From assembly GCF_033153115.1 (NCBI RefSeq), contig NW_026889769.1, positions 3,658,001 to 3,722,000 on the forward strand: a DNA stretch of 64,000 nt. The letters are read 5' to 3'. The number at the start of each line of letters is the position of its first letter. Position 1 is the stretch's first letter. Below, piece after piece: positions 17,301 to 44,400 of the stretch. Under the pieces are notes generated by a model, which was given only the letters and a program-made list of their open reading frames with translations, had not been told where the DNA came from and made no database searches. Both the position numbers and the translations under genes were made by a program. This DNA is from Saccostrea echinata. Lineage: Eukaryota.

Positions 17301-20300
17301 TTTTAATGGAAATGAGTTATGTGATTTTTCTTGCTCAGACAATGTTTTGTGAAGAGTTTGTATTTGGGTTATACTTTTTTGTTTAGTTGAATATGATACA
17401 GATAAATGTTATGCCTGAATATGTATAGTCCGTAGTCCACTTGGGTCTCTGCTATATTAAGAGTGAAATCTTTTTAACCGCTTGACAGAAATGGACAGAA
17501 ATTTCAGACAATCTGCCAAAAGGATGTAGTGTTACATAGAACATATTTGTAATACATTTTGTTTGACTTCATTTTTTTGTTAATCTGCAACCAATACGGG
17601 CACCTGATCTTGGCCAAGCCGATATGTAGTGGATATTTAATTCATATTGTGTGATTTTAGCTCAATCCAACGAGTTAGAATAGAATATATTCGAGGGCTT
17701 TGTTGTAAAAAATTCCAATGACTAAAAGATTCCCCGGCTTTAACTCGAGGTCAGATCTCATTTATTGAGCAATCTTAAGTTAAAATAATGATACATCACA
17801 AGAGTGAACTAAATTTCAGTATTACACTCTTTTTTCTTAGTGTAGTATTTTTGCTTTAGTAAATTTTAATTATATACTGGTTGCGCCCCCCCCCCCTCCC
17901 CGTTTTTTTTTTCTGTAATATCGTGTACCTGCAAATTCTAGGATTTGGATAGTTAAGGAGGTTTTTTTTTGCTTGTCAGATAATTTTTGGAAAATCCCCC
18001 CCCCCCAACTTTTTGGACCGTTGAAGATTTTTTTTTTTTTGCCTGTTAGATTTTTTGGAGGGGGAGGGAGGATTTGCTTCCCCCTTCCACTTTTGAAACC
18101 GTTCCTACGGGCCTGCTATTGTAGCCATGCGGCAATAACATTTTGCTTTCGATCTTTCCCCTCTCATTTTCAATCATAAAAAATCAGTCTACATGTGTAA
18201 AACATGGGGGCCGGGGGTGGGAAGCTTACATTTTTATTTATCTTATTGAACAATCTTTGCTCTATGTACTCATCAAATATTTACAAAGATTCTGTTGCGT
18301 TTGTATCTCACTGCTTATTATAATAAGATAACCAGAAGTTTCTGATGAGGCTGTAGCTCTGCTGCTTTGTATTTATAACAATTAAAGGAAGAGAAAAGTA
18401 GCACTTGAAACTATGCATCAGCAATAAATAGAATAATGGTCCTTGGTTTAGTCTCTTTGTGGCAAGATTTATTGCAATCAGATTAAAAATGTTAGATGAG
18501 TAGCCTTTTAAAAGAATTTCACCAAAATTTCTAATTTTAGTAACCATAGCAAGATTGTTCATCAAAATCAAAAACAAATAAAATTATGCATCTCAGTGAA
18601 GTCTACTTTTGGGCAAAGTATCTTAAAATCAGATCAAAACTGTAGGAGGAGTAGCATTTTGGAAGTATTTCATAGAAGTTTCTATTTTTAGTAACCATGG
18701 CAACACTATTATTCCAAATCAAAAATCGATACACAGAATTATTTATCTGAGTTTGAAATCTTGTGTCCAAGTTATATTCAAATCAGACCAAAATTGTAGT
18801 AGTGTTTTGAAAGTATTTTACAAGCTTTTCTATTAAAGTAACCACGGCTACAATGCTCAAAAAAAAAAAAATCGATAAAAGAATTATGTATCTCAGAGTA
18901 GTCTACTTGTGTGTCATGTTATACTGAAATCAGACTATAAATGTAGGAGAGGTAGCATTTTGAAAGTATTTCACAGAAATTTCTATTTTTAGAAACCATA
19001 GCAAAACTGCTCCAAAAGAATCTAACACTCATGTACTAAATTATGTATCTTAGTGCAGTCTACTTGTATGCAAAGTTATATTGAATTCAGACCAAAACTG
19101 TAGGAGGGGTAGCGTTTTAAATGAATTTCACAGAAATTTCTATTTTTAGTAACCATAGCAACACCGTTCATCAAAATCAAAAACCGATGTACTAAATTAT
19201 GCATTTTAGTGCATTCTACTTGTGTGGCAAGATATATTAAAATCACATCAAAACTGTAGTTTGAAAGGAATTTCACAGAACTTTCTATTTTTAGTAACCA
19301 TGGCAACACCCCCGTTCATCAAAATGCACTATATTATGTGCACTATATTATGTATCTTGGTGTTGGCTACTTGTGTGCCAAGTTATATTGAAATTAAACC
19401 AAAACTGTAGGAGGAGTAGAGTTTTGAAAAATTGTTTAAAGACAGACGGACAGACAGACAGACGGATGGAGGTCGGACACCTTACCATCGCATAAAATCT
19501 TCTGGTGTCTGACCAGTAGAGCTAAAAATATCGAAAATTTGACCAAACATGAATGGTTTTATACAGACATCGAACAAGATGATCTTTGAAAAACGTTCAC
19601 TGTCGTTTTTTTAATTAAAATACGAATCAAAGGTGATCAGTCTCTTTGTTTAAAATACAAAAATAGCTATAGACCTTGACTCCAGCCGTGGAGATGAATC
19701 CGGCTTCATAAAGATCCCTATGTATGTCCAGTAGGACGTGAAGATTGTAAAGAGATCCGCTCATTTTTGTAGTCACGTTTCCGTTACCGTTCCATGTAAA
19801 GCAAACCCCTAAAGAGGTCAGGATAGGTTCGAACACCTGTCCATCCAGGAAGTCGAAGGTGCTCGTCAAAATAAACTTTGAGACGTCCATGCTCAGTTCT
19901 TGTTCCAAACTATTTGGCTCAAAATATCCATTTTCCTTGTAATACGAATCATTCCAGTCCACTTCATTGCTAAAAGCCGCCATGGTGGAGATCGATAACC
20001 AATAATCAGTATCTTTTTGAGATTTAGAAGATCTTGATTTGTTCTTGGAACCCATGTTGCAGATAGTAACCGCGGGAAATTGCATTCTTTCGAAACTCTC
20101 CAGAGATATTTTGCTTAGAAACGGATATGAGTAGTAACTCCGAAACTCGTCTATCAAAAACCAGACGATGGAAACCAGTGAGGTTGGAAGGAAAAGTATC
20201 CATAAAACTCTATTTGAATAAGAAAACACATGTATTCAGATTTTGCATATTCGATTGTTCTCTTTTCTCGGTAACATCATATGAATACAATTGTAATGAA

Positions 20301-20859: not shown

Positions 20860-21586
20860 ATTACATATTAAACTCAAAGTTTTTTTGTTGAGTTTGAGTA
20901 AAAAAAGTAGTTCTCAAATAAATTTCCCTTTCTAGCAATTTTTGTCTTTTTAAGCAGAAAGTAACTCAATCACAGTTCCAAATACCATCTTTTAATTTAA
21001 AACAACAGCTCAAAAATTTCGCCTTGGAGGAACACAGCGGAAAACAATGAATTATTAATCGTCATACCCCATATATCCATTTAATAAATTGCAATTTTCT
21101 TTATACCCGAAGTATCAATTTGGGAAATTGCAATTTTCATTAAACATTAATTCAGAAATAAATGTACTAAATTTTTTATGCGTAATGCCTAATATGAGAA
21201 ACTATTGAGATATTTCTCATGAATTGATATAAAAAGTAATAAAACAAATATAATAGCCTTTTGATTCGGAACAATCCCTCGGTCGATATGCTTTCTCTAA
21301 GCTATATATTTACGGATTGACCTCATCAAAATACTATATGAAAGTATTTCAAAATGTTTGCATTCAAATGAATTCTGTCCTTAATCTAAAATATGTCATC
21401 ATTACCAGCTATGATTGTATGAAGACTAAGTGGAATCTTTCATTAAATGAATACCTTTATATTTGACTTATTCCCCAACAGAACAGAACACCGACTATAG
21501 GATGATTTAGTCCAATAACTAAAATGAATGTTTAATGCAGGAAGGGAATTCAGCGTAAAACGGCAAATATTGAGTAGTACACAATA

Positions 21587-23042: not shown

Positions 23043-26000
23043 TTACATACTAAGATAATCAACAACCTTTTGAATAATCTTTGAGGATTTTGTTATTCTT
23101 ACACTCTTAGGATTTTCTTTCAATGGTTCTGAAAATATATATCTAATCCCATTTTCTGGGTCTCTAGCATGAATTTGTCTTAGTTTTGACAAAGTAAGTC
23201 CACATAGAAACAATTTTCGAAGTATTAAAGCTGACACAACTTTGCCTCTCAACAATGGCTCTAAAGACTCTTTACATGTGTAATATGATAAATAAAAAGC
23301 ATTTTCAGACACTGTACTTTCTGACAGACACAACTTAGAGTAATATAACTTTTCTAATGCTGTCACATCTGCCATCGCATTATGAGCCTCATATTCCTCT
23401 CCTAATAGATTCTGAACCAATGTCTCTTGCTTGTAGTTTGGAAGCTGGATATCTTTCAATAATTTCTTGGAAATCTTTAGAGTATCTAAAAATCCAGTTA
23501 CATTCTTACGAAATCTTTCAAGAAGATCACAGTTTCCCAAATGGTGTCGCAGTATTGGTAAGTCAAAGTTTTGAATGTTGTGTCCCACTAACACTGGAAG
23601 GTCAAAAGACTCTAAAAATGTAAGAAACTTGGTGAGTGCTTCAGGTGGAGGAAATGCAGCGACTGCTTCTCCCTTGTAGCAGAGGTTGTTTCCATCGAAG
23701 GTCAAAGAGGTTGCTTCAGATGCTTCCTTGCTGATGGAGCGAGTGGGCAAGGCATACACTGAGAACTCCTTTTCTTTGCATTTTGCAGCAATTTGAAGTA
23801 TATCAGATGTTCTTCCTATAGAAAGAAACAAAATGTGTGATCTTATGATATTGGCATACTCAATGTAATGATTACAAGAGGGATTTTGAAAGTATTATAT
23901 GATTAACAAACACCTATAAATTATACATGTACTGAAATTTAAGTATGAACAAACCTAATCCTCCTGTTTCCAAATCAAAGAACACCAATGGATGTGTATG
24001 CAGATTGTCAACAGGGGCATCCAGTTGAATATCATCTATATCTAGGTTTTCTTCAGCCTCTAAGCATATATTTGGCTTATATGTATCTCCTTGAAAAATA
24101 AATCATTTTGTTCTCAGATTGTATCAACATATGAGTAAATATATTAAAGATGACGAAATCACTAAAAATTAGTCAATACTAAATAAATGTACATACTAAA
24201 TAAATGTACATGTACCTTCAAGAACAGACTGTGATGCATTCTTAGATTGCCTTTCAGCTTTTAGCTCCAGTCTTCTTCTTTTGGCACTTGGCTGTATATT
24301 TCTCAGGCGCTTTCTTTTCAGCTTAGCATCCTTGCGTCTCATGTGTCTCATGGTGTATGTACCAGGTGATAATGAGCAACTCTTATTTAGCTACAAATCA
24401 AAGTTACTTAATTACTAAACATTGAAACACATATCAGCACATTTGACACACGAGAAAACAATTATAATAATTGTGGAAGTTTAAAGTAAATTCTTCTCTT
24501 TAAGTTCCAAGACATATCACTGGTTAAAAATTTTTAAGTTTATATTATTATTTAATACATATATTAGAAAGAATTAATGTTATAAATATTAGTTGGTAGA
24601 GTCCCAAATTAAAAAAAAAAGGTAAAAATAAGGTGCAATTAAAGAAAATGTAAACAGACATAAAACAATATTCAAATTACTCTGAACAAAAATAATGCCC
24701 AAAATTCGGCAAATATAAACATGATAAATAACATAAAAAAAATCAAATCATGAATGGCTGCACGTAACACATTCTACCTCAGATATGTATTCAAAACCAT
24801 CATTTTTTGGCAAACTGTGGCAGAGAGCCTTGAGGCAAGGCTTTCTGAGCCCCCATAAAACCTGCATTACAGATGTATTGCAAAATAAGCTACACTGCTC
24901 TTATATATTTATTGCTTTTAATGCTATGGGGCTGAGTACATGTAACAATTTGCTCACAGACATGTAAGTTTCAAACTTAAATTCAAGAACTATTTTAATT
25001 ATAGTATGCACAGGTATGTCATGTACTTACAATCTCTTTGGTGCTTTAGAAGCTGCCATATGGTTAAAGCTTTCATTTGACTGAGTGGACCCCATATTGG
25101 CCAATTCAGATGATCTTGATATGAATTTCTCCATCAGAGACTGCAAGGCCACCCTAAGGTCTTTGTCATCAAGTGGTTTTCCATGTGGCAGTGCCTTGTG
25201 TTTATATCCCTCCTCATTACCCCTGCACCAGGTTCCACAACTAGAATGCTCACCTACACAAGATAATACTTCATTAGCAATATATACATATCATTACATA
25301 ATCATGATAACAACCATTACCCAGATAGCAATAAGTTTTTCAACAGACTTTTAACAGTAGTTCTAATATCTCACTCAGCAAACATTCTAGTTGACCTTCA
25401 TTACACACCGTACAAATGAGGAATAATACTGCTTAGTCCAATGGCTAGTTGCTCTGGTTGGCCCTTGTTTTGCGAAATACTGTAGCTGAAACATCTTTCA
25501 ATGTGGGAGCGGACTTTAGTGTTTCGCAGTAGCTTGTGGGTCTTGCTCAGTTCTATGAGGGAAGCCGTGAACCCTTTCCTTGCGTGATTACTGTCGCACT
25601 GCTTTCTGATGTTCTTGTCTACAGTTGACTTCACTCTAGCTATCGTAGTGCTATCATTGTCCATCACTAATGTGGATACCTGTAAAATAATAATGATATA
25701 AGGCTTATTCAGAATCATCTCAAAGATTACTTTGGAAAAACATTCTGATTATTAACATATTTTACTTTTTCTCCCTGGTCCAAAACAGACTGTAGCATTT
25801 CACAGGCCATGGCTGGTTCCATTGATTTAGCAGAACCTTCCCAATTTTTCTTACAGTTATGCTTTCTTGGTGTTACATTTTTCTCTTTAGCTGCACTGCA
25901 GATACGACATTTCTTACTCTTCAGTGCATAACCAACACATTTTCCTGTTTTCTGCCCTATTAGAGTGGCATGACCTGAAAGACATTTTCAGTTATTTTTA

Positions 26001-27605
26001 GAAAGTTCCTTCAACTGTACAGAAAATATAAATTGTTACTCTTATCAGTAAAAGAATAATGTCAAAACACATCTCACCAGTAAGACTATTATAAGACCTG
26101 CCAGTGCCTCTTTTTTGCCATGCTCCATCAAAACTTACAACAATGCCATCCTCTTGAGAATCAGTTCTACAAGAAATAAACCATAAAAATGATGGTCATA
26201 GCCAGTAAAACTTACAGATAGCATGTGCAACAAGTGGTCACTCACAAAGGGTGCTCTACATTCTAAAGTACATGAATAGTGGAAATTCTGATAAATTATT
26301 GTGTGTAATTTCCTGTATTCCTATGCAGTGCTACCAAAATTCTATGAGATAATTGCAGACTGTATATAATATAGTATCAAGAAACATTTACATTTTTCAA
26401 ATATTTTCCATAAGATACTTTGCTAATTTAAAAAGGTTCATTTTCTCTTGAGCTACTATGGAGGAGTATGAATATATCCACTTTGACGTCATAATACCGT
26501 ACTGACATCTAACTATAGTGCAAACTGTTTTGCTTCAAAAATGATAGTTGAATAAAAGAAATTTGTGGAAAGTCTGGCATATAAATAAGTAGTAGACTTC
26601 ATAAAATATGCCAGAATGAAGGGTAATAGTTTATGTTCTCATAATTTCTCTAATACTATCAGTACATATATCAATTCTTTGTGTTTCTAAATGAATTATC
26701 CATGTTTATACTTACAAAGCTACTTCAGTTGCCAGATTTCTTGAACATGATGCAGTTGCCATTCTCTCAAGCTTCTCTCCAACTTCCCTTTCTCTCTCTT
26801 TTAAGTTTTTATGACATATTCCAGGAATATTGAGCATTGCCAGAAGAGTGTTAACATGGCTTTCTCCAAACCCTCCATTGACCATACCTATGTTGCACAT
26901 AAAATATATATGTGTTAGACTATAAAACCATAAATACAATATGAAATTGGATAGAAATATTTGATGTAATAGCAAATCTAAATGATCCACTTTTGTCTAT
27001 TGTATTATTGAACTAAATGATGCAATATTGGAAGTTTTAAACGACAAATTATCATGTTATTTTACACTGGCCATCTTACCTGCTGCTAGTTTTGTATTGG
27101 CATCCCATGCCAGTCCCCCTTTTTCTGTCCGATGACGGCTTCCTGTGGCAACGTCGTTTACTAGCTGACAGCTTTCACACTTAATTTCCAAGATCTGGGA
27201 AAGTCCAAACTTTCGTTCGTTTATGCAGTTATGTAAATGTAGGGGGGACTGGCAAAGCTGACAAGCCCTTAACCCATCTGCAAGAACGCTCAGTTCCACA
27301 ATACGTCTACCCACCCGCCAATCATAGCTTTTACCGTTGTCTATAGAGGGATATCCATCATCACACACAGTCACTTCTTCCTCTACACCAAAATAATCAT
27401 GATCTAAGTGCACGAATTGTTCACATTCAGTGTGATCAATGTTATTCCGGTCACCTTCCGAATGAATCGGTGGTAAAGGTTCACCCCTGTTCTTGGCTAA
27501 GCGCGCTAACAAACCTTTTTTTAATCCAAGTACTTTTTTGCTATGTCCTCGCTTGGTAAATTGTCCGTTTTTCTTACGCAGCAGATGTCCGTTTTTGGCG
27601 GACAT
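23043..27605 (-). CDS. DDE transposase fused to a DEDDh 3'-5' exonuclease with PML/Plex9-like C-terminus; 10 exons, about 885 aa; 1-nt frameshift in exon 7
   Basis: Exons (minus): 27605-27080, 26887-26716, 26166-26078, 25974-25766, 25679-25409, 25253-25031, 24861-24778 (84 nt, 85 needed), 24390-24216, 24089-23955, 23815-23043. Transposase motifs: CxxC..CxxC, VSFDGAWQKRG, KCRIC..H.C..NW.GSAKSME, MDNDS, CDSNH, GSTQSNESFN..KAPK. Exonuclease motifs: FFDLETGGL, GHNIQNFDLPIL, AHNAMADV. Confidence 0.88.
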
Positions 27606-29493: not shown

Positions 29494-32400
29494 ATGAACC
29501 ATAATTCAGTCCCAAAAAGAGCTAAAATGGACGATCTGGGAGAATTTGACAAACTTTTTCCTGAGTTGCTGGAATGTCTGAATGAAGGATGTACAAAAGA
29601 AAAACAGTTAGACAAAGTATTTGCATGGTTCAGAGAGGTAAATATTATTAATGGCATGTTCTGTGATCAATACATGTTGTTTGATTTTACAAAATATAAT
29701 TTGTGGCATCTTTATTCCCAGGTATCGGAGTATAATGTTCCACATGGCAAGAGGAACAGAGGTCTGTCTGTCATTGCTTCATTAAGATGCTTGAAAGAAA
29801 TAGTTTCAGAGGAGGAAGAAAAATTAGCCAGAGTGTTAGGATGGTGTGTGGAGTGGGTGAGTTACATCAGAGACATATAATAGAGACATATAATCTCTAT
29901 TATATGTATGTCTATTATATGTCTCTGGTTACATGTACTGAGTACATAAACACAGATTTTGACATGAAAAATTATCAACTGACAAGGATTCAAATACATG
30001 TACTCATCATGCTCATGTATATATACTGTAAGCTACCCAAGGGGTGGCTAGTATTTCTGAATCCTCAGTATGTATACAGGTCATTGCTTCATCATCTAAA
30101 TAAATCATCTATTTACCAGGATGCACCAATTTAATTTGTTCTCATGTAAAATAGACCAGGCTCTTCTCTCTGTAGATACTTAGTGGAATAATACTTAAGA
30201 TGATGATCAGTCATGCTTATCATTTATTGTACGTACAGCATCTCATTATCATAACAATATAGGCAATACACAAGTAACAACATAAGAAAACATAGCTGAT
30301 TCTTCAGAAACACAAGTTTAGGTCGTCCAGTGTGGTAGGAGATTTCTAACTAGGCTAATTACGTGTAATTTACATTATAAGTATCTCACCGTCTTAGCTT
30401 TCTTCTTTATCTTTTTAAATGTTGCCGCCGTACAACTAGCTGAAATCTGTCGTAACGTAGTACGCGCTTGCTTATATAACCTCCTATCCCCTGTCACATG
30501 ACACAAATTATCCAATGAAAATATGCCGTACGAACTATCAACCAATCAACAGCTTGTACGGGAAGCTGAGTTCCCACACAAGTTCCCACACAGAACTACT
30601 TTTGCCACACAAGCTGCCGTACAATATCGTAACAAAAATAACAACGTAAAAATAACAACTGGAAATAGAATACATAAAATAAACTTGACTAGACGAATAA
30701 ATTAATACCTTCAATGTTTATAAAACATTCCTAGGTTGTACAATAGGTACTAAACAAAGTAGCGTATGAATATCGTAACTACCAACGATAGCGTAAACAA
30801 ATGTAGTTCCGATTAAGCTGACTGATAATAAAGTTAATGCTGACAATAAAGGACTACTTATAGCCTCAAAATACACAACAACTCAAATTAAAATGTAGAA
30901 TCTGATCCAATATTCATAACTTGAATCATAGATTACTATAGTAAATATGTCACTAAACCGGAAGTGACGATCCGAGTAAAGTATGATGGCTACCAAAACA
31001 TGAAATGTAAAATCCACCCTCTTATCCCTGATATTATAAATCCTACGACTTTACATGAAGCAACAACAGGTAAAATATGATGACAATAGCTATTTCTACA
31101 ATCGTATCAAGATAGGCTGACATATTATTTTCAATAAAATCGTAAATGAACAACTTTTCTGGCAGGCACATGATGAACATAGATTTAACAAGTAAGAGAA
31201 CTGGACGACCGCACAATATTACGTATAAAATAAAGTGATATATTACAATATATTACACTCCCCACAACTTAATTACAAAATTCTCCTGAATTTGAAATTT
31301 ACATCAACTCAACATAGCATTAACAGTCTTTACAGATTTTAAAGTCTGATGGGAATGTTCTTAGAGTCTATAATTGCAAGAAGGTCATCAGTGGAGCGGT
31401 CCCTAAGAGCACAAGATCTCTCAAGCATCTTTACCCAGGTCGAATCCCCATTGTCTTCGCTAACTATTGTCTTCAGTTGTTCATATATGTACCGAGCCTT
31501 TCGAACAATTTGTTCCTCCTTTTTCCCAATCTTCTCTACTGTGCCCGGAAGTGCGAGGAAATTGAACTTGTCTAATAAATCCACACGTTCGATACTGGAA
31601 CTTCTTGTTGGGTCCATCTTCTGTTGAATGGTCATGGAAGTGAATTCCCAAGATAGAAGCTTTCTATCAGATGACATCCCCTGCCAGTCCTTTGGAGGCC
31701 ATAAAATACTGAGATCTTTCAACTTCAGCGTAATCTGTTCTGTGCCCCAGTCCCTTCTTGCTGGAGGAAATAATGGCAAACATCCACGTTTTAGGAGGTT
31801 GAGGGCCCTTTCTGACATACTTGCTCTGGGTTTATTACTAGAAGAAGATTCTTTCACTGACTGTGAGGCTGGCTCAGATGGAGTTTCTGCTATGGCTGGT
31901 GCAGTGAGAGCAGGGGTTGGGCTTGAACATCTGATTTTCTTTGCGGGAGGACTGTTGTCATCTGCCTCTGTCGTTGTATATATCATGTCAAGGTAGTTCT
32001 TGTCAAGGCCAGCAAATTTCAATAATCTGGACTGGAAGGTAGGTGAACTTAATTGCACCATCTTAGTCTGGTCAACCTGAGGGGCTTCATTCCTCTTCTG
32101 TACCGACATCTTCCTTGAGAGACTGGCTACTCCTTTAGCGTCTGTGAGGATGGCATCTCTTATATTCATCTTAAAGATCTGTCTGCCCTGGCCTATAAAC
32201 AAGCAAATTTTCCCCAACATCAGGGAGACGTGTAGTATCTCCATCTCTTCTATCTCAGGGGCAGAGGGCGTGTAGCATATAGTTGGTACATGTATGTCTA
32301 GGGCTTCTTCATCATAGTCAGGTTGAAATAGAGCTTCTGGGGTTGGGGCCTGTGTGTGTGTGATCTTTAACTTGTCCCATCCTCTCTGCCACTCATCCTT

Positions 32401-35400
32401 CTTTCTGGTTGTTCTTCTTGTGGTGGAAAGCCATTCCAAGACTAAAACTCTAGCATGGGTGGCAGAGGTACTCCCCCATTCTGTTCCGTTGACCAAGCGA
32501 CTATATCCTTCTGGGTCGAGGCTGAACCACACACCATTACTTTCAGAAATCAAGTCAGATGGGTATTTGGCGAGCTGGTGAGGATGTGTTGACTTGATGT
32601 GGCTCCTGAGGTCTGTGACTCTTTTATATGTTCTTTCGTCAGGGCACCAAGGACAAACAACTCTCATAGTTCCATGTGTAGGCATCATATGGTTCTTGAG
32701 GTCTCTGTTGGAGGGAAAATTCAGGTGGCATATCCAGCACTCCATTACAATAGTCTAAAATCAAAGTAAATGGTTGTTAAAGGGGAGTTCATGCGTCATC
32801 TTACATCGTCTTATCTTCTTAAAGAGTTTCTTTGTTGTTTAAACTAAATAGGAAATCATAACATCAACACTTCTACTTCTGAAGTTAGCTACCACATGCA
32901 CTAACATCTACATCTAAATCTCTAAGAGACTGGTTAGAACAAGACATCAAACATCTATAGGATTCAATGTGTGATGTGTACCAGGTAGTAGGTCCACGTC
33001 TATAATACTGTCTTATAAACGACTTGTTAACCATCTCTTTCAACATCTTTGGGAGAAGAGTTCTGGGTGATCAGGCCAGCTCTATCCCAATCTCAATGGT
33101 GCACCAATCTCACATCTACCATCTACATAAACATCTAAGTATGACTTCTTAAAAGTAACTTGAAACATAGGAATACAAAACAACATCTGAAGAAACTTCT
33201 ATGCTTTATTTAAAATTTTCTTAAACCAGTTAGGGAGGGTTTTTCCTTTGTAGGGCATTAATCTGTCAACATGATAAACTTTTGCTGGTTTCCGAAGTGT
33301 TCTTTGCACGAGGTAGTTCAAATCATCTATTCGTTTGGTGATGAGGTAAGGACCCTTCCATTTTGAAGTTAGTTTTGGACACACCCCAACTTTCCTGGTA
33401 TCATCATACAACCAGACAGGTTGACCTCTTTCTAACAGTTGTTTCTTTGCTTTAAGATCATAGTGGCATTTATTATATTCTGTACTCTTTTTCAGATGTT
33501 CCCTGGCCAGGGCATGAACATCAATCAAAGTTCTTTGTAGCTCATCTATGTACTCATTTGGTTCTATGCCATCATCTGTCTGACTGGGAGGTTTGCCAAC
33601 AACTGCTTCTAGGGGTAGATTAACATTTCTGCCTAACATCATGAGATTTGGTGTTGTATTGATACTAGAGTGTATGGAAGCTCGGTATGCCATCATGACT
33701 TGAGGGAGATACTTATCCCATATTTTCTGGTTGTGCTCGCAGTACATAGTCAACATAGTAGCTAAGGTACGATTGAAGCGTTCCACACTGCCATTAGCTT
33801 GAGGTCGCATACTACTTGTCCTAGTTTTGTCAATATGGAGAAGTTCACACATTTCTTTAAAAGCTTTAGACTCAAAATTTCTTCCTTGATCAGAGTGGAC
33901 TTGTAAAGGTGTACCAAACCGGCAGACTATTTCATTGACAAAAGTTGTAATAACAGTTTCAGCTTCTTGATCTGGGATAGCTATAGCTTCGGTCCATTTA
34001 GTGAAACAATCAATCATGACCAGAATGTATCTGTTACCTTTTGTAGACTCGGGAAGAGGTCCCAAAATATCTAGAGCTATCCTTTCCATTGGTTCTCCAA
34101 CTATGTACTGTCCTAATGGTGCTCTGTTTTGTCTTTGGCTGGATTTACGAGCAGCACATAAATCACATTTTTTACAATATCTTGCAATTTCTTTTGACAT
34201 TGATGGCCAGTAAAATGAATTTTTTATGCGGGACGTGGTCTTCTCAGCACCAAGGTGGGCTCCTGTGGGAACATCATGAAAGTAATGAATAACCTCTGAT
34301 CTCTTCTGTTTTGGTACAACTAATTGTAATATGACCTTGTTTGTATCCACATCTTGGAACTCTCTGTATAACAGACCATTGATGACTTTAAGTCTATCCC
34401 ATTGTCTCCATAAGGTTTTGAATGCCTCAGAATTGTGTGATATGACATCCCATTTTGGTCTTACAGAACCATCTGTCAAGGCTAATAAAAGCATGCCCAT
34501 AGATTGGTCTTCCAGTTGCATCTGTCGAATTTCATCCACCCCCCATCCCTCTAGTATTACTTGGTTTCTGAATTGGCATTGGGCTATTTCTTTACTTCTG
34601 GTTGTCACTCTAATTGTTGGGATGGATTCAAGACCTTCACTTCCATTGCATTTTTCATCATCGCTATTGTCACTGTCATCTTTGTTTTGTTGTTGTCTTA
34701 GACATGGTTTGCAAGGATTTCTCGACAAGGCGTCTGCATTTTGATGACTTCGCCCTGGGCGGTGAGTAACTGTAAGGTCATAAGTTTCGATCTCTTGAAG
34801 CCATCGTACTGTTTGACCAGTGGGGTTCTTCAAGCTTCTGACCCAGCTGACAGCAGCATTATCAGTGCGAAGTAAAACCTTCTGGCCATAGAGGTAGGGA
34901 TGAAACTTCCGAAGGGCAGTGACAACAGCTAACAACTCTTTACGTGTGACACAATAGGATTGCTCATGGCGGTTCATTGTTTTACTCATATAGGCAATTA
35001 CTCTTTCTTTGCCCTCTTGATTCTGAGACAAAACTGCACCAACAGCTTTATCGCTGGCATCGGTATCTAGTGTAAATGGTAGTCCAGGTAATGGGAACCC
35101 AAGTATTGGCGAAGTTGTAAGAGCTGTTTTGAGGGTGTCAAATGCATTCTGACATTCAGGGGTCCATAAGAACTTTGTCTTTTTCTTGTATAAATCATGG
35201 AGGGGCTTTGCTATCTCTGCAAAATTCTTCACAAATCTTCTGTAGTAAGAACAAAGTCCAAGGAATGATCGGATTTGTCTTTCATTCCTTGGAATTGGCC
35301 AGTTTTTGACAGCTGATATTTTCTCAGTATCTGTCTGGATACCCTGTGAAGAAACTATGTGACCTAAGAATTTGACTTGTTTTTGGAAAAATATACATTT

Positions 35401-38400
35401 TGATGGCTTGAGCTTTAGATTTGCTTCTTGAAGTCTCGTAAAAATATTGGCTAAGCGCTGAAGGCCTTCCTCAAAAGTTGAACTGTAGGAAATTATGTCA
35501 TCCATATAGACTAAGCATTCAGTCCACTGTAGACCTTTCAGTACATTCTCCATAAGTCGCTCAAATGTAGACGGGACATTAACTAGACCAAATGGCATGA
35601 CTCGAAATTGGAAAAGTCCTAGTGTTGTTAAAAATGCAGTCTTCTCTTTGTCCTTTCCAGCCATTTCTATTTGCCAAAAACCTGAATTGAGGTCCATTGT
35701 TGAAAACCATTTGGCACCAGACAGAGAATCAAGGCATTCATCTATACGGGGCAATGGATAGGCATCTTTCACAGTTTTCGCATTCAACTGTCTGTAGTCG
35801 ACACATGCTCTAGTGGCTCCATTTTGCTTTGCTACTAAAACTAGATTTGATGCCCAGGCACTGGTGGATGGTTCAATTACACCTTTCTCTAACATGTTCT
35901 GAACTTCTCTTCTTTCAATATCTCTTTTTGCTATAGGTTGTCTTCTTAGGGGTTGTCTCACAGGCTTCTCATTTTCTGTATCTATCTTGTGTTTTATTAT
36001 ACCAGTGCAGCCAAGATCATCTGGTGTCTTAGAGAATACATCTTTGTGCTGTAAGAGTAGTTTGAAGAAAGCATCTTTCTGTTCTTGGTCTAGATTTATG
36101 GAACTTCTTTCAAACATGTCAAGGAGATGTTCTGGTAAATCTTTTTCAAGAGTTGTATTTTCCTTGGTATCCTTAAGAACTAAGACTCTCTGTGGTATGG
36201 TACCCTGATCCAGTAAATATGCATTTCTGCATTTACCAATTGTAGTTCTGGCTTGAAGTTTTACAGGTTCTTCTCCAAAGTTTACAATGTTTACATGTAT
36301 CTGATCAGACTGGGTATCTATCAAACCATCCAGTACTTGTATGTCATCACTGAAGGTGTTAAGTTGCTCTAGGAAGCCTATGTCGGTGAGGTCACCATTT
36401 CTGGTCAAAGCTACTGGAACCCAGACACCACAATTTGCAGGTATGGAAACTGTTTTCTTGACCTCCACATTTGTAGCTGCTTGATCATTGGCAATCCAGC
36501 ATTGAACAGTTGTCTTCTTGGTCTGAAGTGTTTTTGTTTTGTAGTTAATGTGATGACAATACTGCAAGAGGAAGTCTTGTCCGAGTATAGCAGGAAGATC
36601 CATGTCAACCACCAACAAGTCAACTGCATGTGGAACATCTTCTAGAGAAATGTAAAATCTTCCAATACCATGGACCGACAATGTATGACCATTCAAATCT
36701 TGCACACACATGTTTGAGGGTTGAAGATCAGGACACGACTCCTTCGGAATCTTCAGAAATTCCACATGTGACAAAAGTGATGCAGTAGAACCACTGTCTA
36801 GTAAAAAATTAACATCCACCCCACCCAGTGTTCCAGTAATATGGAAACCATTATCTGAGATATTTTTCTCTTTATTTAAAACCACCCCCCTAGAGTCATC
36901 AGAACTAGGTCTTGGCTCCTCCACCAGCTGTCGACCTACAAGGCTGATGGTCTCCCATTTCCCTGTTGGTAATTTTGTCGCCTTAGTACATCTTGATTTC
37001 TTCTCTGCCCAGGTCTTTGTTTGTCCAAATAAGGACAGTCTTTAATAAAATGTTTAGGTGAGCTGCAATGGAAACAGAGTTGAGGGGAAAACTTCTTGTT
37101 GGCTCTTTCCAGGCGGTCCAATCTGCTACTGATTTCTTGAATTAGTGAAGATGAATCAGGAGAGTTGCTTCTAGGCGCAGTAGAAGATGTTAACTTACTC
37201 ATCACTGGCACAGCTTGTGGAACATTAAATTCCTCATCATTTGTTTTAACAGCTCTAGCATGTTGTTTCTTTTTGTCATAGTTTTCACCAAGGATGGCTT
37301 CATATCTGTCAATTATATCAGCAGCTTCTGAAATGCTCTGACAATCTTTATCAATACATCTGCACTTCATCTCTACAGTTACCAGCTTGTAAAGGTGATT
37401 TAAAGCTAAGATTTCTTGAGCTTGCTCATCTAAATTACAGTAGGCTTTTTGAACCATCTGTCGGATATCATCACCTAGAGCAGCAGCACTCTCACCCTGT
37501 TGTCGTCTGCGTGATTCAAGCTTAGCTAACCATTTGTTCTGGTGTCTGGAATTTCCAAACCGCTGACTAAACTTGTTAATAAGGGCGTCAAAGGATCTTC
37601 TTTCAATCACAGATAAACTCATGTAAAATGTCCTGGCTTGGCCTCTCAAGCTTGCAGCAAGAAACAGTACTCTATCTCTCTCTGTCCACTGGCTTAGTTC
37701 TGCACAGTCATTGAAGTGTGAAATATACTCTTCCCAGCTTACAGTACCATCATAGGACTCTGGCTTCATCATGTAATTCACAGGTTGGATAGGGCTTGAA
37801 AACAGCTGAGGGGCAGGTCTACCAGAAAAACCACTATAGGTGCTTGGTGGTGGACCATGATTGTCTTCGTGTCTTTTTGGAGAAAATCTTTCATCATTGC
37901 TCGACTTCTGACGTTCATCATATGTGTCACCTTGACCACCATCATCAAATGTAACCGACTCAGGCACGCGTACCTCGACTTCATGATCAACCGACTCACC
38001 GGATTCTGACATCTTAAATTCTTTTTTTCGTCGTCTTAAATAAGTAGTAATGAATCTATTGTTAAATCTATGTCATCTTATCTTCTAAGACTTTAATGTT
38101 GTTAAACTACCACACTGGACGGCTCATGGGCTCGTATCAGGACACTAAAAAAATTTAGTATCCCACTTCTGACACCAGTTTGTAAGCTACCCAAGGGGTG
38201 GCTAGTATTTCTGAATCCTCAGTATGTATACAGGTCATTGCTTCATCATCTAAATAAATCATCTATTTACCAGGATGCACCAATTTAATTTGTTCTCATG
38301 TAAAATAGACCAGGCTCTTCTCTCTGTAGATACTTAGTGGAATAATACTTAAGATGATGATCAGTCATGCTTATCATTTATTGTACGTACAGCATCTCAT

Positions 38401-41400
38401 TATCATAACAATATAGGCAATACACAAGTAACAACATAAGAAAACATAGCTGATTCTTCAGAAACACAAGTTTAGGTCGTCCAGTGTGGTAGGAGATTTC
38501 TAACTAGGCTAATTACGTGTAATTTACATTATAAGTATCTCACCGTCTTAGCTTTCTTCTTTATCTTTTTAAATGTTGCCGCCGTACAACTAGCTGAAAT
38601 CTGTCGTAACGTAGTACGCGCTTGCTTATATAACCTCCTATCCCCTGTCACATGACACAAATTATCCAATGAAAATATGCCGTACGAACTATCAACCAAT
38701 CAACAGCTTGTACGGGAAGCTGAGTTCCCACACAAGTTCCCACACAGAACTACTTTTGCCACACAAGCTGCCGTACAATATCGTAACAAAAATAACAACG
38801 TAAAAATAACAACTGGAAATAGAATACATAAAATAAACTTGACTAGACGAATAAATTAATACCTTCAATGTTTATAAAACATTCCTAGGTTGTACAATAG
38901 GTACTAAACAAAGTAGCGTATGAATATCGTAACTACCAACGATAGCGTAAACAAATGTAGTTCCGATTAAGCTGACTGATAATAAAGTTAATGCTGACAA
39001 TAAAGGACTACTTATAGCCTCAAAATACACAACAACTCAAATTAAAATGTAGAATCTGATCCAATATTCATAACTTGAATCATAGATTACTATAGTAAAT
39101 ATGTCACTAAACCGGAAGTGACGATCCGAGTAAAGTATGATGGCTACCAAAACATGAAATGTAAAATCCACCCTCTTATCCCTGATATTATAAATCCTAC
39201 GACTTTACATGAAGCAACAACAGGTAAAATATGATGACAATAGCTATTTCTACAATCGTATCAAGATAGGCTGACATATTATTTTCAATAAAATCGTAAA
39301 TGAACAACTTTTCTGGCAGGCACATGATGAACATAGATTTAACAAGTAAGAGAACTGGACGACCGCACAATATTACGTATAAAATAAAGTGATATATTAC
39401 AATATATTACAATACTGTAAAATCATATATTTTCTTTGGGTCAAATTTTCATGGTTTGAGGAAAAAATATTGGTTCATGGGGATTTGATTTTGTGGTTGA
39501 AGAAGCGGTGAGTTGTTATAATTATATGTGAAAGTAACATTTCGTGGAAGAGATGAATTCTTTGGTTTCTTCATACCTTGAAAACAACAAAGATTTAACA
39601 GGTCGGGGAATCTACCTTATATGGATATTGTTGTCATTGCGCACAGCGGTGCTTACAGCCAACAGTCGTCCAATCCAGTGAATGAGCTGAAAAGCATGAT
39701 GATCTACTACATGTTTATATTTTACTACAAACACTTGGGTCAGGCAAATTTAGGACGCAATTTCAAATGACTGTGGGAAAGTCAACTAATAATTATTTTT
39801 AATGTTTTTGTGAAAAATACGAAGAATAGGTACTAATTAAGATTACCCATGCTCACGTTAACAAACAAAGTCAATTTTCCGTGTTAAATAGTACGTTGAA
39901 ATACCGCTCGCAAAGTCTTCAAAAGTAAATAAGAATCCAGTTTTTATAACTTGATAGTCGTAATTTTGCCATGCTACTGCTGTTATTCGTTGTTGCTTTG
40001 TTATTTGTTCACTAGAAATTTAAAGTTAATGCATTTATTAAAAAAAAAACCCATAAGTTTATTGCTGCACAGCATTTATTTTAAACAGTATTAATTCTCA
40101 TGTACATCGATCATAGAACGTGTATTGAGTAGCATATATATATCGTTGTAAACAATGACCACATGTGAGTACACCTCAGAGTCGATTATTTTGGACCACG
40201 GAATAGTCACATGAAATTCATATTCACTGATAGTACAGCACAGGAAAAGCAGCCAAACAATTGTAAACTTACGGACTTGTACAATGGAGTGTAGAAAACA
40301 GCCATTTTACCATTGTAAAACATCTGTATGTAAATGTGAGCATGGAGTTCGTAGATAATGATGTACAGATTGTATTAAGTGTGTTAAATGCTTGGATAAA
40401 TGCATCATGTCTTTCCGAAAGCGATTTGAAAAACTGGCCTTTTCGAAACGTACATGTAGTATTTTTTGTAGTAACCCATAATGCAACTCATTAAGCCGAT
40501 TGGACGGTTTGTCAGTCACGATGGTGCCTCATTTAGCATGTAAATTTATTACGTCACAGAAAATAGTTTCCTTGACCTGTTTAACCACCAAGAAAATTAG
40601 TGATTTCATGGTAAATATATATCACATGTTTACTCCTTTATACAGTAGGTATAGCTCACAGGATATCGTTTTCATATCCACAGTTGTGATGTCACAATTG
40701 TTTTTACGTGAATTTGATCAGGTCAAATATTGTGGATTTACATATAAATATAAGACAGTGTAAAACATGAAATGGCTTCATGTAAAACATGTGACAAAAA
40801 GAATCTCCCCTGGTTTGTGGTTTAATATATGTGATTTTTTAATCCAGTGAGTTGTGTTTTTATCCCCATGCCAAGGTTCAGGGATAAAAATACACAACTT
40901 GATGGATAAAAAAATCATTACAAACCAAGGGAGATCCTATATAGCATTATAGCACTTGTGAATGATTTCAGCTTCAGGCCTTTTTCCTTGTCGCAGATGA
41001 CATAATGGATAACTCTACAACAAGGAGAGGAAAACCATGTTGGTACAAAAAGGTACAGTACACCTCAAACATTCATTAAATACTAAAAGTTAAGATCTAA
41101 AGCTGCTGGAAAGTTGGGAATTGCTGAGAAACACAAAATTTGTCATTCATTCACATGTCAAGTTCACTCTAGTGAATCACTAGCTATCACATATTCCTGC
41201 AAAGCAAAATATTTGAATCCTGTAACTCTTTGAAAACCTTGTTAAAACTTTTGTCTATCTGATTGGAGATGTAAACTGATGTTAACTGAAGTGGTTGACT
41301 GTACATTTTAGGATGGAGTGGGGATAGTAGCAGTGAATGATGCTTTCTATTTAGAATCCTGTGTTTACCACATCATGCGTAAATATTGCAGAGACAAACC

Positions 41401-44400
41401 ATATTACATCAACATTGTAGACTTATTTCACGAGGTGGGTTTCTAAACTAACAATCAGAGTTTACTGCCTGTTCCTGTAGTTTTCCAAGCATTTATGCTT
41501 CATGTTACATATTTATATATATTTCAAATTACAATTTAGGCCATCTTTAAAATAATGTTTGTTTGCCCTCTCCCGACCCAGGGTAAAAAATTGGGTTGGT
41601 AGGTAGGTGGGAAAAATTTTTTTTCCTCAGAAAATTTCAGTATCAATTCTGAATTTTTAAAATATATTCAAGTTAAATTTATAATAAATACATTGTTTCC
41701 TGGAGGTTAAAAAAAGTTTTGAGTTGGACCGTTTTTAGCCAGTCGGTCAGTAGAGGGCAAACAAACAATTTTTTGAAGATGGCCTGGGTAAAAACATTAA
41801 ACTCTCCACAAGTCAGGGTGTGAGGTATAATTATCTCTTGGGATGGTCGTATCAGGGTTCTATGATAATTATTACTATCATCTAAATCTGTATGCACTCT
41901 TAAGCCCAAGAGTGAAACAGAGAATATACATGTATAGTAATAGAATTACTGAGGATAGTAAATCTCTGCACAGCCCTGATCAGTCTGATTAAAATCAAAC
42001 CTTCACTAGCTCCTTTTTATTTTGATTGTCAAAATAAAAAGGAGCTAGTGAAGGTTTGATTTTAATCAGACTGAACCCTGATAAACTCTCAATGACTAAT
42101 GCATATATGGTACATGTATAAAATAAGCCACTCAAATTTACTAGGATGAAATACTTCAACATATTTAACTAGATGTGTTTGTGAAGCACTGATGCCCCTG
42201 TATGGCAACTTATTGCAAAGGTTAAACTTTCTCAAATGCAAATCAAATATGTTGGTACCCAAAGTAAGGTCTTGTCTCAAGAAATATACCTGTGACATGT
42301 GAAAGCCCTAGCAGCAATCATTGAATAGATATGGAAAAAGTTACAGTTTTTCAAAAGTAAGTCAAACATCAAGGTCAAGTCAAAATTAATGGTGCCCAAG
42401 GAAAGGCCTTCTCACAAGAAATACACATTGTGGAATATGAAAGCTGCAGCACCAATCATTCAAAAGTTATGGCCAAGGTTAAAGTTTTTCAAAAGTAGGT
42501 CAGACTCCAATGTCAAGGTTGATGGATTACAATTGTTGGTATTCAAAGGAAGGTCTTGTCACAAGGAATAGACTTGTTAAATATGAAAGCCCTAGCACCA
42601 ACTGTTCAAAAGTTATGGCCAAGGTTAAGGTTTTCCAAAAGTAGGTCAAATGTCAAGGTCAAAGGATTAAAGTTGTTGGTATCCAAAGGCAGGTCTTGTC
42701 TAAAGTATTATATATGTGAAGTATGAAAGCCCTAGCACCAGCCGTTCAAAAGTTATGGCCAAGGTTAAAGTTTTTCAAAAGTAGGTCAAACTCCTAGGTC
42801 AAGGTCAAAGGGTCAAAGTTGTTGGTATCCAAAGGAAAGTCTTGTGACAAGGATTACATATGTGAAGTATGAAAGCCCTAGCACCAATTGTTCAAAAGTT
42901 ATGGCCAAGGTTAAAGTTGGGTAAAATTTTGCAAAACTTGGTTAAATTCCAAGGTCAAAAGGTCAAATATGATGGTACCCAAAGAAATTTCTTGTCACAA
43001 GGAATACACATATGAAATGTGAAAGCCATAGCTCCAAACAATCAAAAGTTATGGGCAATGTTGAAGTTTTTGCGGACAGTCCGATGGACGGGGTAAAAAC
43101 TTTATACACACGAATTTGCGATATGGGGGAATAAAAATGAAAGTATTCTCTCTCTCCTAGACAACCATGCAGACGGTGAGGGGTCAGTGCCTGGATATGA
43201 TCACAGCTCCCTCTGGTGGCAGAGTAGATTTCACAGACTTCACGGAAGACCGATACAATGCTATTGTCAAGTGGAAAACTGGCTATTACTCCTTCTATCT
43301 ACCTGTGGCACTGGCGATGTACATGGTAGGGAATACACATATTGTAAATAAAAGTATACATGTAACTGATGACCATTTGTGAAAGAGTGGCATAACTTAT
43401 TGCCATTCAGTATTTGTATAGTGTTATAACTGATTACCATTTTGTATTTGTAAAGTGGTATTACTGTTTTGTATGGTTTGTAAAGTGGAATACATGTAAC
43501 TGATAACCATAAGGGATTTGTAAAGTGGTACAACTGATGACTATTTCATATTTGTAGAAGGGTTTAACTGATAACCATTTGGTATTTGTAAAGTGGTAAA
43601 ACTGATAACCATTTGGTTTGAAGAGTGATATAACTGATTACCATTTAGTATTTGTAGACTAGTACATGTTTAACTGATTACATCTTTGCTAGCCAAGGGT
43701 TTCTGATACGCTACTCTCCTCATAAGCCCTTGGCCTACGGTGTTAAAAAAAAGTTTGGATTTTTTTCTCAAGTTGTGATTGGAGTTGATTGACATCGTTC
43801 GACCAATCATCATTTGATTTTTTGTAAATGACGATATCTGCGTTCGGGATATATCTTTACTCTTTAATCTCCGGAATGAAAAACGCAAGTAAACAACGAC
43901 CCGTGATATAACATGCCATTCTATGAATAGCTATGATGTCATCCAATATCTTAAGCTATGTGCAAAATATGTGATTAAGAATCTGTACTGAAGATGTAGA
44001 TTTGCACTTTAACATGTTAAAATAACAAATTAACATAACTCAATACCTTCTTGTTAATTATTCTTTAAAAAACATTTAATTTTTTTTAATACACTTTTTA
44101 TTTCTGTCGATGATGCAATCTGTGTGTACTTGTAAGAATCGTGATCATGTGACGAAAACAATCCCTTCTTTTGTCAGCACCATAGGCCAAGGGTTTATGA
44201 GGAGAGTAGCATATCAGAAATCCTTGGCTAGCGAAGATGAACTGATTAACGCTTTGTATTTGTAAAGGAGTATAATTGATTACCATTTTTGCATTTGTAA
44301 AGTGGTATAACTGATTACCATTTGGTATTTGTAGAGTGACAAAGGTGATGACCATTTGGTATTTTTTTAGTGTTATAACTGATTATGGTTAGGTATTTGT

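Follow-up and report, generated by a model that had tools for sequence, protein, structure and literature searches.

A zinc-finger third open reading frame in a Gypsy element of Saccostrea echinata and its lineage

The 64,000 nucleotides (nt) analysed here as the window (Saccostrea echinata, contig NW_026889769.1, positions 3,658,001 to 3,722,000) carry a complete Gypsy retrotransposon with a third open reading frame (ORF), termed ORF3, between pol and the 3' long terminal repeat (LTR). The question raised by this locus is what a zinc-finger gene does in a position where an envelope gene might be expected. An earlier sequence-only reading of the window proposed that ORF3 encodes a nuclear accessory protein rather than an envelope. 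Our findings upheld ORF3 as an element-borne, selected, non-envelope accessory gene; the view of it as a peculiarity of one element had to be widened, as zinc-finger ORF3s mark a whole lineage.

The element and its third gene

The window element is a Ty3/Gypsy (Metaviridae) LTR retrotransposon, as indicated by the order of reverse transcriptase, RNase H and integrase (RT-RH-IN), the upstream gag, the LTRs, the target duplication, the primer-binding site (PBS) and the polypurine tract (PPT). Its features were as follows.

38181..39411, minus: 5' LTR, 1231 base pairs (bp), with TATATAA at 38632-38626 and AATAAA at 38382-38377
38537..38544, minus: candidate splice donor G/GTGAGA in the presumed R region, GT at 38543-38542, a consensus match only
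38160..38177, minus: PBS of tRNA-Leu type, from sequence
36936..38012, minus: gag, 358 amino acids (aa), with Ty3_capsid (E 0.0016) and zf-CCHC (E 0.022), both below the Pfam cut-off
36957..36963, minus: predicted -1 frameshift heptamer G GGA AAT from gag to pol, read from sequence
33199..37041, minus: pol frame (protease, PR, then RT-RH-IN), 1280 codons stop to stop, by Pfam and frame
32755..32775, minus: splice-acceptor-like site, from sequence, its AG ending at 32755, with placement kept in 9/11 loci
31339..32745, minus: ORF3, 468-aa zinc-finger accessory protein, by frame, Pfam, homologues and selection
31258..31265, minus: PPT, immediately 5' of the 3' LTR
30027..31257, minus: 3' LTR, 1231 bp, by identity with the 5' LTR

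The LTR pair, with TG..CA termini, was 100% identical over its full length, in agreement with the earlier description of a very young copy, and a 4-bp target duplication (GTAT) was found at 39415-39412 and 30026-30023. A pattern made from the complement of the PBS matched seven places in the genome, and ARAGORN called tRNA-Leu(CAG) at one of the two that were fetched. Pfam recognised RVT_1, RT_RNaseH, Integrase_H2C2, rve and Integrase_p58_C in pol; the protease had no Pfam match and was assigned by position. The pol frame overlaps the end of gag in the -1 frame, and we infer that the two are joined by a -1 frameshift at the predicted heptamer. ORF3 begins 453 nt past the pol stop (33199), continues in the same orientation with no internal stop and ends 81 nt before the 3' LTR, so that the intact frame reported earlier stands.

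The protein was divided into the following parts.

32584..32739, minus: two C2H2 fingers, aa 3-24 and 31-54, with conserved ligands; the helix of finger 2 has R at -1 and D at +3
32356..32583, minus: helical module 3' of finger 2, aa 55-130, predicted local distance difference test (pLDDT) about 97; P78, Y81 and W123 nearly invariant
31966..32253, minus: small alpha/beta domain, aa 165-260, pLDDT about 95, sequence poorly conserved
31930..31950, minus: PPAKKIR, resembling a nuclear localisation signal (NLS), aa 266-272, from sequence
31342..31821, minus: C-terminal domain, aa 309-468, the best-conserved part, pLDDT 94.4, predicted template modelling score 0.87

By its ligands, its Pfam matches and its modelled finger fold, ORF3 is a classical C2H2 zinc-finger protein. 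The two fingers of the earlier description were recovered as the only Pfam matches (zf-C2H2, E 1.7e-5, two stretches), and their ligands (C3, C6, H19, H24, C31, C34, H49 and H54) were conserved at 95-100% among homologues. Over about 100 homologues, the base-reading positions of finger 2 were kept, with R42 at -1 in 80% (K in 14%) and D45 at +3 in 82% (E in 16%); positions 1, 2 and 6 were variable (28% or less). The finger pair gave a profile match to the DNA-binding fingers of CTCF and ZBTB17 (E 6e-5), and the finger model aligned with fingers of ZNF524, ZBTB7A and CTCF at Z 3.8-4.0. The PPAKKIR and Trp-rich C-terminal motifs noticed before were also present. A loose pattern, run without a control, found PPAKKIR-like motifs in 40 of 90 homologues of at least 400 aa, and the C-terminal motifs [16 protein letters not shown] and [13 protein letters not shown] were conserved, as were R330, R331, R387, R418 and R467 of the same domain.

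AlphaFold2 models were built from 109-row alignments for the N-terminal half and the C-terminal domain separately. The model of the N-terminal half (pLDDT 91.5) comprised the two fingers, the helical module and the alpha/beta domain, and a fold search with it returned zinc fingers only, the latter two modules having been searched only within the whole half. For the C-terminal domain, the best entry was VIA at Z 4.5 (a designed protein, rmsd 3.0, 53 residues aligned), with none at Z 5, and Foldseek gave no match at E 0.001 in the PDB and viral libraries. A Panoramix-Sov entry, at Z 4.0, was not considered informative. ORF3 had no match at 0.9 in the ESM Atlas. This lack of matches shows neither that the folds differ nor that they are new.

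Envelope features were absent from ORF3, and both modelled parts were predicted to be soluble. The highest 19-residue Kyte-Doolittle mean was 1.38 and the N-terminal 9-aa maximum was 0.77, consistent with the earlier statement that no signal peptide, fusion peptide or transmembrane helix is evident. ORF3 had one NxS/T sequon, no furin-type site and no glycoprotein character, and no fusogen fold was among the listed matches for either half, with unlisted families outside the scope.

Distribution, selection and predicted expression across the lineage

A search of the same genome returned 73 ORF3 matches (91 of 95 candidates scored), which gave 35 loci with the window included and a tandem trio counted once. 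The lineage pol lay upstream in the same orientation at 31 of these (at one, 4.8 kb away), and of the four exceptions, two are fragments, one follows an unrelated pol and one is an intact gene present in a single copy. Five subfamilies, with about 28-38% (ORF3) and 52-57% (pol) identity to the window, kept an intact ORF3 at the same position, and LTR pairs were at least 98% identical at 15 ORF3 loci. Outside this genome, relatives numbered 415 cluster representatives at E 0.001 and 54 at 1e-30. Those that could be named (30 clusters were looked up, most of them unnamed) came from oysters, mussels and clams (Magallana, Ostrea, Mytilus, Mercenaria, Potamilus and Sinanodonta), together with one from a bacterial metagenome bin, which is probably host contamination. 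Of 11 metagenome loci, seven start too near ORF3 to show what lies upstream; the four that reach far enough all have pol.

In an integrase tree of 72 loci, from which C1_47.13 was left out for its short match, the ORF3 carriers fell in one clade (support 1.0) that also held C23_7.88. This last locus (G000:C23:7.87-7.89 Mb, L088-L089) combines an integrase of the focal clade with an ORF3 (a different finger ORF) and a primer site of the C57/L128 type, a combination that suggests a module swap between lineages. The possibility that ORF3 is common to a second Gypsy lineage was raised by C9_51.42, where a decayed ORF3 lies 2.3 kb behind a distant pol; it was rejected as chance nesting because a copy of the same family (L149, 80-86% alike) had no ORF3 profile match. 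Tandem elements were seen at G000:C30:16.29-16.32 Mb (L019-L022), with three full elements that have LTRs in common and are 99.8-99.9% identical, and at C1:6.61 Mb.

ORF3 is under purifying selection. Of 20 unsaturated pairs, 19 had ratios of nonsynonymous to synonymous substitution (dN/dS) of 0.06-0.44 and the remaining one had 0.65; six saturated pairs were dropped, and the pairs share references, so that they are not independent. The ratios for pol were similar where measured (0.08-0.51). In RNA contigs from a relative with about 91% identity, 18 of 25 listed ORF3 differences fell at third codon positions. None of the outcomes named earlier as telling against the accessory-gene view occurred: homologues were not mainly single-copy host genes, dN/dS was not near 1, and the models showed no envelope features. 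The elements C29 and C10_10.7 were 95-99% identical over the LTR, gag, pol and the finger half of ORF3 and 60-64% identical over the linker and C-terminal domain; therefore, the tail was swapped while the fingers stayed with the LTR.

Judging from the sites that precede it, ORF3 is probably expressed from a subgenomic mRNA generated by splicing. The acceptor AG ends 9 nt before the ORF3 ATG, as the sequence-only reading had noticed, and its placement exceeded chance: a YAG with a pyrimidine tract lay at most 10 nt from the ATG at 9 of 11 non-redundant loci, compared with 1415 of 27169 background ATGs (5.2%) of the same fetched DNA (binomial p 1e-10). A donor-like site was located about 90 nt past the TATA box in the window 5' LTR, and such sites occurred 65-125 nt past the TATA box in C46, C56_12.1 and C54_8.7, in a comparison from which 5 of 21 loci were dropped as they had no callable ATG. 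No RNA junction to 32754 was found in four runs, where all contigs belonged to the relative and cannot exclude a junction; the nine RNA runs found contained 5-6% of the sequence words. Expression through the gag start codon was considered and rejected: splicing from the donor 13 nt past the gag ATG to the acceptor at 32754 would leave the gag start in a different frame from ORF3.

The wider lineage carried zinc-finger ORF3s of other kinds. Forty further loci, some of them copies of one family, were hand-picked for diversity from 130 integrase matches among those with no listed ORF3 match. Past pol, 26 had a finger-pattern ORF, one had a degenerate form by eye, one had an ORF with no in-frame finger and 12 had none. 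By this count, 27 of 40 carried such an ORF3, whereas none of the 20 loci taken from a control Gypsy lineage (118 matches) had a finger ORF of at least 100 aa within 3 kb of pol; the control showed three short finger-pattern matches of 39-92 aa. BLAST placed the sister ORF3s in several groups, namely fingers with BTB_2, fingers with acidic tails and TQT-like motifs, and others. BTB_2 (KCTD-type) was fused to the finger pair in three of eight scanned sister ORF3s (E 1e-14 to 1e-18).

L101:4602-5885, minus: third ORF with finger pair and BTB_2, by Pfam
L105:4645-5868, minus: third ORF with finger pair and BTB_2, by Pfam
L093:4871-5626, minus: third ORF with finger pair and BTB_2, by Pfam

A BTB-like stretch in a second frame was seen by eye in L137. 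Acidic tails with one to three TQT-like motifs, which we take to resemble dynein light chain LC8-binding sites, were observed in L131, L136, L144, C16_22.5 (L118-119), C56_13.56 (L110-111) and C72/L134. One sister ORF3 matched the RNA-binding zf-C2H2_jaz model (E 6e-6), and an acceptor-like AG lay near the start of most. The design of the lineage is a finger pair with a variable effector tail, as in host zinc-finger transcription factors. Monophyly of the whole lineage was poorly supported in the integrase tree (0.17), where ORF3-less forms were scattered among carriers. Four of these are young sisters of C10_1.22, with LTR pairs at least 99.8% alike and 97% identity to C10_1.22 over LTR-gag-pol (two compared). 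The LTRs of this family (L100-L101, L096-L099, L102-L103, L114-L115) held AGGTG/CCTTC 14-18 times each against about two expected, with or without ORF3.

The intact single-copy homologue lies at G000:C2:21250169-21251914 (L082:3170-4915, minus) and encodes 582 aa. No gag, pol or primer site was found in the 29 kb upstream or 14 kb downstream. The gene has no finger 1, is followed by a PPT-like tract about 250 nt past its stop and stands head-to-head with an exon matching CAF1-p150_C2 (E 2e-8). It was 70% identical over its full length to P0050, a cluster that includes Ostrea edulis LOC125649889, with the next best match at 34%, and it sat eight nodes below the midpoint root of a tree with weakly supported nodes. 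Domestication from an element appears likelier than the reverse, making it a candidate domesticated gene.

Possible functions of ORF3

The location of ORF3, its conservation under purifying selection, the placement of the acceptor, the anatomy of the fingers and the lack of hydrophobic segments are established; the readings below concern how the protein serves the element. We give about an even chance to ORF3 being a nuclear DNA-binding regulator of the element's own LTR. By this mechanism, the mRNA would be spliced from the donor near the transcript start to the acceptor before the ATG, and the protein would be imported into the nucleus through PPAKKIR. The two fingers would bind the element's own LTR, with finger 2 reading an NCG-containing site, because R at -1 and D at +3 would specify N-C-G under the C2H2 recognition code. 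The exchangeable C-terminal domain would bring in the host's chromatin or transcription machinery, and ORF3 would act in trans, either as an activator or by countering silencing.

This regulatory role is favoured by the retained base-reading residues, by the fingers staying with the LTR, by the design of fingers joined to an effector and by CpG-rich LTRs (observed/expected CpG of 0.89 in the window LTR versus 0.29-0.36 in gag, pol and ORF3). In the C29 LTR, CCGGA occurred 17 times versus 1.4 expected (z 9.8, null maximum 4.8). The young ORF3-less sisters of C10_1.22 fit a factor supplied in trans.

Several observations weigh in the opposite direction. Young ORF3-less elements could equally mean that ORF3 is dispensable, and the acceptor rule failed at 2 of 11 loci. 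No shared U3 motif was significant in 8 versus 12 LTRs, the best being CGTA (permutation p 0.058), which had first been noticed in the window LTR before the test was made, and the top 5-mer of the window LTR (z 3.5) was below the shuffle maximum of 3.8. The finger 2 helices are near-identical in the window and C29 families, yet the LTR words differ (TACG versus TCCGGA). Repeated words also occurred in ORF3-less LTRs, and CpG-rich LTRs outside the ORF3 clade. In addition, two fingers provide little specificity, and C2H2 fingers may bind RNA or protein.

The broader proposal is that an old, large, envelope-less animal Gypsy lineage encodes its own modular zinc-finger transcription factors, mirroring host effector zinc-finger (ZNF) silencers, and that one gene was domesticated in oysters; we rate this slightly below even. 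The exchangeable effectors would then be an undescribed fold, a BTB domain or tails with TQT motifs.

The alternative that survives best, though we regard it as unlikely, is a Rev/CERV-like RNA regulator made from spliced mRNA, whose fingers and conserved Arg bind unspliced element RNA and promote its export or block its splicing. A strong internal acceptor implies that the element must export intron-containing RNA, and ORF3-less forms, by losing acceptor and ORF3 together, would have no need of ORF3. The many conserved C-terminal Arg, four loose patterns resembling nuclear export signals (NES) and the jaz match in a sister ORF3 are in keeping with this, but the conservation sits on the canonical DNA-reading positions of finger 2, and the NES-like patterns were obtained without a control, some of them within predicted folded cores. 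A precedent is CERV, a nuclear protein encoded by Cer1 of C. elegans, which is made from spliced mRNA, exports Cer1 RNA and has an NLS and a Cys-rich loop; however, in the available text of that study, CERV has a proposed C4 finger and no C2H2 pair (PMC10309623).

More doubtful is a counter-defence adaptor, whose fingers would bind a host protein of silencing or restriction and whose tail would direct that protein to degradation or sequester it. KCTD-type BTB domains can act as Cullin-3 adaptors, and such BTB_2 tails occur in sister ORF3s; the swapping of C-terminal halves between otherwise almost identical elements also fits an arms race. However, the window ORF3 had no BTB match in Pfam, its C-terminal domain is under purifying selection, and BTB domains also simply oligomerise. 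We consider it improbable that ORF3 is a targeting factor with a gene of its own, one that anchors the pre-integration complex to selected chromatin. Its DNA-binding-type fingers and NLS-like motif would suit that role, and the accessible part of PMC12440569 describes tethering domains in other Gypsy lineages (chromodomain), but ATAT-like flanks surround ORF3-bearing elements and ORF3-less sisters alike, indicating that local target choice can do without ORF3. The protein is also separate from Gag-Pol, with no obvious way of entering the particle. Finally, ORF3 could be a host gene captured recently and carried as a neutral passenger, or an envelope in disguise. In support, the single-copy C2 homologue lies outside any element, and 6 of 90 long homologues have a 19-residue hydropathy of at least 1.6. 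This reading is largely refuted and very improbable given dN/dS far below 1, the position of ORF3 kept in five diverged subfamilies and the soluble predicted folds; against capture, the C2 copy is without finger 1, is followed by a PPT-like tract and lies well below the midpoint root, if on weak nodes.

Neighbouring sequence and comparison with known systems

Near the Gypsy element, ORFs at 25401-27605 (minus) of the window matched a Mutator-like transposase (PF20700, E 4e-11) and probably represent a spliced DNA transposon; close to them, a 110-aa ORF at 23043-23375 (minus) matched the PML C-terminal domain (PF25244, E 5e-22). Repeats in the window comprised one of 204-250 bp (1-249 and 21306-21566), a direct one spanning 300 nt or more (2181-2480 and 3776-4075, 100% identical, 1595 apart) and degenerate tandem arrays at 42242-44707 and 18430-19428, with units of about 140-150 nt and 34 nt.

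The sisters with and without ORF3 provide natural pairs for testing regulation, and the C-terminal domain represents a confidently modelled domain without a clear structural match. Our findings also suggest that some bivalve gene models annotated as 'C2H2-type domain-containing' are transposon cargo.

The earlier statement that Gypsy third ORFs usually encode envelope-like proteins was too strong, as CERV and the esterase and exonuclease ORF3s of bdelloid rotifers are counterexamples. In the available text of PMC5408684, third ORFs of bdelloid LTR elements encode GDSL esterases, DEDDy exonucleases or fusion glycoproteins; they resemble ORF3 in lying between pol and the 3' LTR, in being modular and in being exchanged between lineages, and differ in being enzymes or glycoproteins, whereas the window ORF3 matches only zf-C2H2 in Pfam. 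CERV, as described in the accessible part of PMC10309623, is likewise a non-envelope accessory protein of an animal LTR retrotransposon, with a spliced mRNA, an NLS (splicing and NLS being predicted for ORF3) and several linker-joined domains. It differs in a start common with Gag, its C4 finger, a G-protein-like domain and demonstrated RNA export; ORF3 has a C2H2 pair and its own ATG past pol, the two being compared by description and not by sequence. The literature covered, which took in PMC13524379, PMC6238403, PMC9679248, PMC8556966, PMC10294476, PMC8905726, PMC12440569, PMC11952523 and PMC10309623 and included mollusc or annelid transposon surveys, did not describe C2H2 ORF3s in Gypsy elements of molluscs, with Repbase and most subscription journals outside the scope. 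Non-envelope third ORFs were already known; the other zinc-finger ORF3s of the wider lineage are new here.

The errantivirus env, in the part of PMC13524379 available, occupies the same slot and is expressed by splicing, as predicted for ORF3. What sets ORF3 apart is that it lacks a furin site and any long hydrophobic stretch and does not have the character of a glycoprotein. Foamy virus Tas/Bel1 and HTLV Tax are spliced accessory genes of proven function adjoining the 3' LTR, in Retroviridae that have env, and contain no C2H2 pair. ORF3 is similar in its place by the 3' LTR and its predicted splicing, and may likewise act on the LTR. Simple LTR retrotransposons are thought to depend on host transcription factors, self-encoded regulators being a hallmark of complex retroviruses; if the regulatory role is true, the lineage-wide repertoire of zinc-finger accessory proteins would represent complex-retrovirus-style regulation that arose without an envelope. 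The host factors that combine an effector with C2H2 fingers (ZBTB, KRAB-ZNF and ZAD-ZNF) offer the closing comparison: ORF3 likewise joins a finger module to a putative interaction domain, but it has only two fingers, placed N-terminally, and is encoded by the element, with a focal effector of no known family and sister BTB domains of KCTD type.

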